Shown: positions 32,683 through 33,780, counted from the first letter of the stretch. The stretch: 64,000 bases of DNA from Escherichia coli (GCF_003334255.1 NZ_QOWU01000020.1); one strand, 5' to 3'. Program-made: numbers and translations. Notes: a model not told the origin generated them from the letters alone.

Positions 32683-33582
32683 ATGACCGAATCAACAACC
32701 TCCTCCCCGCATGATGCGGTATTTAAAACCTTTATGTTCACACCCGAAACCGCACGGGATTTTCTCGAAATACATTTACCAGAACCACTGCGCAAGCTTT
32801 GCAACCTGCAAACCTTACGCCTGGAACCCACTAGTTTTATTGAAAAAAGTTTACGCGCTTACTACTCGGATGTTTTGTGGTCCGTGGAAACCAGCGACGG
32901 TGACGGCTATATCTACTGCGTGATTGAACATCAAAGCTCTGCAGAAAAGAATATGGCTTTTCGGCTAATGCGCTATGCCACTGCCGCCATGCAGCGTCAC
33001 CTGGACAAAGGCTATGACAGAGTCCCGCTGGTGGTGCCGTTGCTGTTTTATCATGGCGAAACCTCGCCTTACCCGTACTCACTCAACTGGCTGGATGAGT
33101 TTGACGATCCGCAACTTGCCCGGCAGTTGTACACCGAAGCTTTTCCGTTGGTGGATATCACCATCGTACCTGACGATGAGATCATGCAACATCGGCGTAT
33201 AGCTCTGCTGGAACTGATTCAAAAGCATATTCGCGACCGCGATTTAATCGGCATGGTCGACAGGATCACCACGCTTTTGGTTAGAGGCTTCACTAATGAC
33301 AGCCAGCTACAAACACTGTTTAATTATCTGCTGCAATGCGGCGATACCTCCCGTTTCACCCGTTTTATTGAGGAGATTGCCGAACGTTCACCACTACAAA
33401 AGGAGAGATTAATGACTATTGCTGAACGGCTACGGCAGGAAGGGCATCAAATTGGCTGGCAGGAAGGTATGCATGAACAAGCCATTAAAATTGCTTTGCG
33501 CATGCTGGAGCAGGGCTTTGAACGTGAGATTGTGCTGGCGACAACCCAACTCACTGATGCTGATATTCCGAACTGTCATTAA
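32683..33582 (+). CDS. rpnB: Rpn-family (YhgA-like, transposase_31 / PD-(D/E)XK) recombination-promoting nuclease
   Basis: 299-aa ORF; recognised as yfaD/rpnB from sequence; contains an internal in-frame SD+ATG near its 3' end. Confidence 0.8.
33412..33582 (+). CDS. Candidate in-frame internal small protein (56 aa) translated from within the rpnB 3' end
   Basis: AGGAG at 33401-33405, ATG at 33412 in frame with rpnB (729 nt from its start); the same module is duplicated downstream as ypaA. Confidence 0.45.
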
Positions 33583-33594
33583 AAGGAGAGATTA

Positions 33595-33780
33595 ATGACT
33601 ATTGCTGAACGGCTGCGGCAGGAAGGACATCAAATTGGCTGGCAGGAAGGTAAATTAGAAGGTTTGCATGAACAAGCCATTAAAATTGCTTTGCGCATGC
33701 TGGAACAGGGCTTTGATCGTGACCTGGTGCTCGCGGCCACCCAGCTAAGCGAAGCCGATCTGGCAGCGAATAACCACTAA
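33595..33780 (+). CDS. ypaA: Small protein paralogous to the RpnB C-terminal tail
   Basis: 61-aa ORF, roughly 75-80% identical to the last 56 aa of RpnB; own SD (AAGGAGAG) 6 nt upstream. Confidence 0.6.
   Translation: MTIAERLRQEGHQIGWQEGKLEGLHEQAIKIALRMLEQGFDRDLVLAATQLSEADLAANNH

Follow-up and report, generated by a model that had tools for sequence, protein, structure and literature searches.

The rpnE-ypaA locus of Escherichia coli, a probable Rpn gene-within-gene with a tandemly duplicated small gene

In the Rpn family model, a PD-(D/E)XK nuclease toxin is checked by a small protein made intragenically from the 3' end of its own gene (Zhong 2023, PMC10400941). In a 64,000-nucleotide stretch of Escherichia coli DNA (hereafter the window), a gene of this kind is followed directly by a free-standing second copy of its small gene. 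This arrangement raises two questions: whether the long gene encodes an active toxin, and what the second small gene does beside the first. A preliminary description, made from the sequence alone, read the region as a nuclease toxin with an intragenic antitoxin and a duplicate that may buffer toxicity or act as an anti-defence decoy.

Identity of the locus and its published basis

The region is very probably rpnE-ypaA of the Rpn_L/Rpn_S gene-within-gene family, with the small gene tandemly duplicated and free-standing (Table 1), and is the same locus as the rpnE-ypaA of Meydan 2019 and Zhong 2023. In a survey of 5,426 complete E. coli genomes, the rpnE (yfaD)-ypaA segment is chromosomal and lies between glpC and yfaU in 5,421, with rpnE intact in nearly all of them; no plasmid copy of the segment was found in that survey. 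The name rpnB, given to yfaD in the preliminary description, has to be replaced: yfaD is rpnE (b2244), and rpnB is yfcI (b2305), about 65 kb away. Toxicity of RpnB and its neutralisation by RpnB_S have been demonstrated (Zhong 2023, PMC10400941). RpnE is the sole K-12 paralogue for which no activity was found, so the label of toxin is not transferable to it from RpnB. The K-12 MG1655 annotation names the product of yfaD (rpnE, b2244) 'inactive recombination-promoting nuclease-like protein RpnE' (RefSeq) and flags ypaA (b4543) as a pseudogene. The window differs from MG1655 at 3 of 1,421 nt, all non-synonymous: the window encodes L107 and P155 in RpnE and L44 in YpaA, and K-12 encodes Q107, L155 and Q44.

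Table 1. Features of the rpnE-ypaA locus, in positions of the window
Feature	Position	Strand	Basis
rpnE (yfaD, b2244) CDS, RpnE_L, 299 aa + stop	32683..33582	+	ORF, K-12 annotation, NF007418
Transposase_31 / YhgA-like PD-(D/E)XK domain, residues 8-209	32704..33309	+	PF04754, E = 7e-88
Codon 107, Leu here, Gln in K-12 MG1655	33001..33003	+	comparison with K-12
Codon 155, Pro here, Leu in K-12 MG1655	33145..33147	+	comparison with K-12
Copy 1 of tandem duplication	33398..33564	+	local alignment to 33581-33759
Internal Shine-Dalgarno AGGAG, 6 nt 5' of internal ATG	33401..33405	+	sequence; published Ribo-RET/Onc112 initiation
RpnE_S, 56 aa, in frame, the C-terminal domain of RpnE_L	33412..33582	+	sequence; SPA tag; PF27070
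Sole four-residue repeat unit WQEG, RpnE_S residues 16-19	33457..33468	+	1 to 9 units in other strains
Copy 2 of tandem duplication	33581..33759	+	local alignment to copy 1
Shine-Dalgarno AGGAG of ypaA	33584..33588	+	sequence
ypaA (b4543; 'rpnE_Ss'), 61-aa free-standing RpnS paralogue, two repeat units	33595..33780	+	ORF, SPA tag, PF27070
12-nt insertion AATTAGAAGGTT relative to copy 1, the extra KLEG unit	33653..33664	+	alignment; placement ambiguous within repeat
GC-rich hairpin between convergent ypaA and yfaU, likely terminator	33788..33814	.	terminator-like site on - strand

The long product matches the NCBIfam equivalog NF007418 with 699.5 bits (cut-off 583), scores above the cut-off for TIGR01784 (Rpn family), and an HMM search agrees with the Transposase_31 / PD-(D/E)XK assignment proposed earlier. 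RpnE is 51-66% identical to its K-12 paralogues, and an alignment with RpnA, RpnB and RpnC places all of the motif residues D11, D63, E82, Q84, R94 and D165, which are kept in 68-76 of 79 diverse family representatives. RpnA loses activity when D11, D63, E82 or Q84 is mutated (Kingston 2017, PMC5350276). RpnE combines an intact YhgA-like PD-(D/E)XK domain with a C-terminal three-helix domain. No model in PADLOC-DB v2.0.0 (2023), a library that predates or omits Rpn, matches RpnE or YpaA.

Within rpnE, the in-frame AGGAG (33401-33405) and ATG (33412) yield the 56-aa product as first described, with 171 nt from the ATG through the stop. Initiation at this internal start was positive in published Ribo-RET/Onc112 profiling, and SPA-tagged RpnE_S has been detected. 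Ribo-RET peaks occur at in-frame internal starts of all five rpn genes, and the internal product of rpnE was likened to the independent gene ypaA (Meydan 2019, bioRxiv 10.1101/520783); the preprint (10.1101/520783) gives the identity of RpnE-C and YpaA as 98%, whereas the sequences here give 82%. All five Rpn_S proteins and YpaA, renamed RpnE_Ss, were detected by chromosomal SPA tags and immunoblots (Zhong 2023, PMC10400941). The same study found that RpnA_S, RpnB_S, RpnC_S and RpnP2_S neutralise their own long proteins, solved the structure of RpnA_S, described variation between strains in the number of a four-residue repeat, and noted that a downstream small-gene copy can vanish by deletion or fusion. 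It also showed that the plasmid-borne RpnP2 protects against phage, which makes RpnP2 the sole member with such evidence. A commentary on Zhong 2023 restates the rule that mismatched repeats prevent neutralisation and suggests that a second copy may add regulatory flexibility; our search for later literature on RpnE or YpaA found no paper.

The relation of the rpnE internal start to ypaA is thus already reported (2019), as is the toxin/intragenic-antitoxin model that includes the YpaA protein (2023), so that the preliminary finding and most of its proposed checks are in the literature. Its reading as a nuclease toxin with an intragenic antitoxin holds in part: the family model is published and both small proteins are made, but K-12 RpnE was reported inactive. 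By homology, RpnE_S would be an antitoxin. Nothing in the core finding is new, and the little that the present analysis adds concerns the K-12-specific allele and the unequal repeat numbers of the two small genes.

The two small genes probably share a transcript. ypaA starts 12 nt past the rpnE stop with no hairpin or terminator between, so co-transcription of ypaA with rpnE_S is the simplest reading. A search at standard and relaxed thresholds found no sigma-70 consensus promoter inside rpnE or before ypaA. Start sites from dRNA-seq inside all rpn genes are cited in Zhong 2023 (PMC10400941), and for transcript structure this cited statement is therefore the sole source. Downstream of ypaA, the + strand fold of the hairpin at 33788-33814 has -12.1 kcal/mol (z = -2.4). 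Rfam gave nothing in 30000-36000.

Anatomy of the duplication and its product

The Shine-Dalgarno and ATG block AAAAGGAGAGATTAATG is seen again from 33581, where it overlaps the TAA stop of rpnE. Local alignment of the two copies covers 167 positions with 16 mismatches and one 12-nt indel. The copies are nearly identical at their start, with 2 differences (33432, 33444) in the first 72 nt, and diverged at the C-terminus, as had been noted: mismatches number 3 of 124 in the 5' part and 13 of 43 in the 3' part (Fisher p = 1.4e-6, with a breakpoint picked after looking), a DNA divergence of 30% for the C-terminal third. With 3 mismatches in a run of 124 nt, the likeness of the copies cannot be chance. 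The duplication, which pairwise alignment did show, was missed by Tandem Repeats Finder, as it comprises under two copies and has a diverged 3' part. At the protein level, 46 residues are identical, or 82% of the 56 in RpnE_S and 75% of YpaA. The indel, previously given as a five-codon KLEGL insertion, is instead 12 nt long, equivalent to four codons, and falls inside a codon. At this site RpnE_S reads G-M-H and YpaA reads G-KLEG-L-H, which gives YpaA one extra four-residue repeat.

The junction of the two units offers a view of how the present ends may have formed. Weaker homology extends about 22 nt 5' of the Shine-Dalgarno at 33369-33391, where GAGATTGCCGAACGTTCA aligns with GATATT-CCGAACTGTCA; this homology is modest, its score being reached by 27 of 2,000 shuffles. 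Through it, the end of RpnE (IPNCH, stop) resembles a frameshifted IAERS from the start of the second unit. The YpaA tail, LSEADLAANNH, is the nearer to the tails of RpnA and RpnB. Tandem duplication, with a 183-nt period, gave rise to ypaA with its own Shine-Dalgarno and 61-aa product. In such a history YpaA would keep the older tail type (LAANNH), the present RpnE C-terminus (IPNCH) would derive from the duplication junction, and the 5' halves of the two copies would still exchange sequence.

The same junction, with two copies, is present in a divergent Escherichia lineage (flanking DNA 94.8% identical; E. fergusonii according to one source), so the duplication is either old or transferred. 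Among 60 genomes taken in even steps down the ranking, 36 carry two copies and 24 (~40%) a single copy with a YpaA-type tail. These single-copy forms have 1, 3 or 5 repeats and encode proteins of 300-317 aa. Several metagenome contigs are single-copy too, in a DNA scan of 14 contigs only, too few for a census.

The free-standing product is predicted to share the fold of the family's small proteins. Precomputed annotations place PF27070 (HTH_Rpn_C) on both the RpnE tail and YpaA; a Pfam-A profile search gave nothing significant on YpaA, this newer profile being found in the precomputed annotations only. The AlphaFold model of YpaA (mean pLDDT 77) has a long helix at residues 3-37 and short helices at 42-49 and 53-57. 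Its best PDB match is 7TH0 (RpnA-S), with a Foldseek probability of 1.00 and a target-normalised TM of 0.74, at an E of only 0.018, and BLASTP of YpaA against RpnA_S gives E = 2e-10. The model is thus consistent with an RpnA_S-type three-helix bundle with a long first helix. A PDB profile search also returned 7TH0, a match that is partly circular since the profile contained RpnA_S. Designer PPR proteins with high summed scores in that search were set aside, as their single repeat matches are insignificant (i-E 8-20).

RpnE_S has 10 synonymous and 5 non-synonymous polymorphisms. In ypaA the counts are 17 and 17, with fewer non-synonymous changes when one repeat-rearranged allele is left out, and the non-synonymous share is below the neutral expectation (roughly 1:3). 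The Shine-Dalgarno, ATG and full reading frame of ypaA are kept in the two-copy loci sampled. PGAP labels ypaA an incomplete fragment, and disrupted forms occur occasionally (L041, P0049).

Repeat numbers and the K-12 allele

Another 67 sequences, drawn from complete genomes, draft assemblies and metagenomes, were read at this locus. The repeats begin at residue 16. Depending on the strain, RpnE_S has 1-9 units and YpaA 1-7, and the free copy is 57, 61, 65, 69, 73, 77 or 81 aa long. Two copies occur in 11 distinct haplotypes, whose embedded (RpnE_S) and free (YpaA) repeat numbers are 1 and 2 (the window and K-12), 7 and 5, 6 and 3, 9 and 7, 6 and 2, 6 and 1, 7 and 3, 2 and 5, 9 and 5, 9 and 1, and 1 and 6. 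The two numbers are unequal in 11 of 11 haplotypes, which are related by descent; the mismatch is not significant, as no match arises in 34% of random pairings (permutation, P = 0.34, 11 haplotypes).

The pattern gains its meaning from a published specificity rule. An RpnC with one extra repeat is no longer neutralised unless both partners carry the repeat (Zhong 2023, PMC10400941), a rule demonstrated for RpnC only. YpaA has one repeat more than RpnE_S, and by this rule the resident RpnE_L is probably not its cognate target. The mismatch across haplotypes fits a non-cognate YpaA and is suggestive only. By the same rule it speaks against YpaA as a mere spare antitoxin and points to an alternative that can be tested.

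The published inactivity of RpnE bears on the other half of the system. Overexpression of K-12 RpnE brought no rise in recombination, no loss of viability and no SOS induction, in contrast to that of RpnA to RpnD (Kingston 2017, PMC5350276). The constructs of that study would also have made RpnE_S, which would mask toxicity. Moreover, the assayed K-12 allele differs from the common allele at two residues, so this negative outcome may be peculiar to K-12. Position 107 is Leu in RpnA, RpnB, RpnC and 60 of 79 family representatives and Gln in 2 of 79, and L107 adjoins H106, itself conserved in 63 of 79. Position 155 is Pro in all five E. coli paralogues, yet in 18 of 79 representatives family-wide. 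P155L was for this reason dropped as a change at an invariant site, which leaves L107Q as the only substitution at a conserved position.

The K-12 allele is also uncommon. Exact K-12 61-mers are present in 355 (codon 107) and 356 (codon 155) of 5,426 genomes, and among 44 loci that were read, Q107 together with L155 occurs in MG1655 and one other genome only. The 100%-identity matches listed for the K-12 allele include the known laboratory strains ER1709, EPI300 and MT102, and the remaining ones listed are genomes similar in size to K-12. The window has the common allele, carried by ~93% of complete E. coli genomes. As judged from these sequence comparisons, the inactivity of RpnE in the assays may be specific to the K-12 allele and may not hold for natural strains such as the source of the window.

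Possible functions and related systems

By analogy with RpnA, RpnB, RpnC and RpnP2, RpnE_S would use its long first helix to bind RpnE_L at the C-terminal domain, holding the nuclease inactive until a trigger, probably phage infection, frees RpnE_L. YpaA would, under the published repeat rule, probably be non-cognate for the resident RpnE_L. Being out of register, it might serve not as a spare antitoxin but as a resident donor cassette, or as an inhibitor of other RpnE alleles. Unequal crossing-over or gene conversion with such a cassette could give RpnE_L and RpnE_S a new repeat number and tail at one stroke. This would account for 5' halves that are nearly identical, 3' thirds that have diverged and the frequency of single-copy recombinants with a YpaA-type tail. 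The two linked proposals, that YpaA is kept out of register with the resident RpnE tail and that RpnE owes its 'inactive' label to the K-12 laboratory allele, are put forward tentatively and with low confidence. Should the label be an artefact (L107Q, P155L), the common allele, as in the window, would be an active nuclease toxin.

Several other readings compete with these proposals. RpnE may be a decayed, catalytically dead paralogue and the locus a relic, its small proteins being leftovers or having an unrelated role. The inactivity of K-12 RpnE in three assays (PMC5350276), the RefSeq product name 'inactive' and the annotation of ypaA as a pseudogene all fit such decay. It is nevertheless unlikely, given that all mutationally defined motif residues are kept and that nearly all of 5,421 genomes have an intact rpnE. 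Moreover, the assayed allele has two substitutions found in only ~355 of 5,426 genomes, one of which, L107Q, hits a position that is Leu in 60 of 79 representatives, and the assayed construct would also have made RpnE_S, which would mask toxicity. A different view of the second gene is that YpaA backs up RpnE_S, or raises the antitoxin dose, by neutralising the resident RpnE_L, the buffer of the preliminary description. Such a role conflicts with the RpnC repeat rule, under which one extra repeat abolished neutralisation (PMC10400941), since YpaA has one repeat more than RpnE_S. It is equally at odds with the unequal numbers in 11 of 11 haplotypes, the 30% DNA divergence of the C-terminal third and the ~40% of genomes (60 sampled) that do without a second copy. 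We consider it improbable, even though YpaA is 82% identical to RpnE_S, is encoded immediately 3' of it with its own strong Shine-Dalgarno, and is expressed, and although the commentary's regulatory flexibility would suit a second antitoxin.

It is also conceivable, but doubtful, that ypaA has no role of its own and is merely left behind by unequal recombination between repeats, with a duplication that comes and goes. The common single-copy forms with a YpaA tail (24 of 60 genomes and several metagenome contigs), the occasional disrupted forms (L041, P0049) and the PGAP label of incomplete fragment are as expected from such turnover, whereas the Shine-Dalgarno, ATG and full ORF in the two-copy loci sampled, the excess of synonymous polymorphism, the shared junction in a divergent Escherichia lineage (flanks 94.8% identical) and the detection of the YpaA protein by SPA tag speak against a lack of function. 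That rpnE is an ISNCY-family transposase and the duplicated block a mobile element end is suggested by the RefSeq and NCBIfam product names, but is highly improbable: rpnE keeps its place between glpC and yfaU in 5,421 genomes, with no plasmid copy among them. Neither terminal inverted repeats nor target-site duplications turned up in the published analysis, and no PD-(D/E)XK transposase is known to be autonomous (PMC10400941). The proposed role of ypaA as an anti-defence decoy found no support, as tblastn against 50,697 phage records matched 8 records and revealed no close free-standing copy of YpaA. The eight comprise two contigs of bacterial origin, two fragments that lack annotation, and otherwise rpn genes that are distant or full-length; the best match, a chromosomal contig of Salmonella, corresponds to the rpnA locus and not to rpnE. 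Plasmid relatives of YpaA are tails of full-length rpn genes with <60% identity, apart from mis-filed chromosomes.

Among known systems, the closest counterparts are the long/short pairs of RpnA, RpnB, RpnC and RpnP2. They have in common with RpnE the nuclease domain and its motif residues, an internal Shine-Dalgarno and start with the same position and sequence as in rpnE, and a three-helix tail with four-residue repeats in helix 1. Their toxin-antitoxin activity is demonstrated, whereas for RpnE it would follow by homology, the K-12 allele being inactive. The rpnE locus further differs from these in its second, free-standing copy of the small gene. Such a copy also lies directly 3' of its parent in rpnC-rpnC_Ss (Zhong 2023, PMC10400941), an independent local duplication that concerns another paralogue at another locus and is present in some strains only.

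Free-standing DUF4351 (PF14261) and HTH_Rpn_C (PF27070) small proteins are, like YpaA, separately encoded versions of the Rpn C-terminal module. YpaA is distinguished from the others by adjoining its parent gene and by being a recent paralogue of the parent's tail. A more remote parallel is provided by Cas10d/Cas11d of type I-D CRISPR, where a small subunit is made from an internal in-frame start, as is RpnE_S. The Cas10d and Cas11d products cooperate, in contrast to those of rpnE, where the short product would counteract the long one.

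Locus forms and a possible origin of the stop codon

Approximately 40% of the E. coli genomes sampled at even steps carry a single-copy form of the rpnE–ypaA locus, in which ypaA is absent (loci L011-L013, L034, L036, L039, L043, L053, L054 and L060-L062 among those read from other genomes and metagenomes). The RpnE of this form comprises 300-317 aa, with a YpaA-type C-terminus and 1, 3 or 5 repeats. This form may represent the ancestral state, or it may have arisen through recombination between the two copies, leading to deletion.

Two segments of the window, listed below as junction segments, exhibit modest similarity (27/2,000 shuffles reach the score). 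With this modest support, the C-terminal IPNCH of RpnE and its stop codon resemble a frameshifted copy of the sequence coding for IAERS upstream of the internal Shine-Dalgarno sequence, such that the stop codon separating rpnE from ypaA would have arisen at the duplication junction. The same junction is present in a two-copy locus of a divergent Escherichia lineage (L079-L080; E. fergusonii according to one source), where an IclR-like gene fragment and yfaY lie downstream in place of yfaU and yfaV.

All 11 two-copy haplotypes sampled feature unequal numbers of the four-residue repeat in embedded RpnE_S, the product of the internal start, and free YpaA, a mismatch that does not reach statistical significance (P = 0.34 if the counts are paired at random).

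Coordinates of features in the window
Feature	Coordinates	Strand	Remarks
Junction segment, upstream	33369-33391	+	compared with downstream segment
Junction segment, downstream	33555-33578	+	
RpnE codon 107	33001-33003	+	Leu in window; Gln in K-12 MG1655
RpnE codon 155	33145-33147	+	Pro in window; Leu in K-12 MG1655
RpnE_S repeat region	33457-33468	+	compared across loci L007-L078
YpaA repeat region	33640-33664	+	compared across loci L007-L078
YpaA codon 44	33724-33726	+	Leu in window
GC-rich hairpin	33788-33814	.	z = -2.4 on the + strand; between convergent ypaA and yfaU
naRNA4/CssrE (RF02564)	22986-23056	-	76.4 bits; gathering score 59.5

Variant and disrupted loci

In one lineage (L072-L074), rpnE is frameshifted and its terminal TAA overlaps the internal ATG (TAATG), so that one gene encodes the 242-aa nuclease domain and another the 61-aa tail. 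Disrupted free copies are rare (locus L041 and protein record P0049); one is fused with unrelated sequence to give a 140-aa ORF, and another has lost its stop codon, resulting in an 89-aa read-through form.

K-12 alleles

The window differs from K-12 at three positions over 1,421 nt, all of them non-synonymous. The L107Q and P155L substitutions set RpnE of K-12 MG1655 apart from that of nearly all other E. coli, with the K-12 alleles found in approximately 355 of 5,426 complete genomes; known laboratory strains are among the matches listed at 100% identity. L107 is conserved across the family and P155 is not. These substitutions may explain the reported inactivity of RpnE. In YpaA, Leu44 is the rarer allele (87 contigs), while the K-12-type Gln44 occurs in at least 1,000 contigs.

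RNA features and comparison with known proteins

The hairpin downstream of ypaA is a candidate bidirectional terminator. RF02564 is the only Rfam match in the 64-kb window, which contains no tRNA genes.

Searching the PDB with the profile of small Rpn proteins (A3) yielded large summed scores for designer pentatricopeptide-repeat proteins. Because every repeat match is insignificant by itself, we regard these scores as artefactual, reflecting a helix-turn-helix-like hairpin that both kinds of protein share. The internal product of rpnE and YpaA are described as 98% identical in a preprint (bioRxiv 10.1101/520783), whereas the K-12 and window sequences both give 46/56 identical residues (82%).
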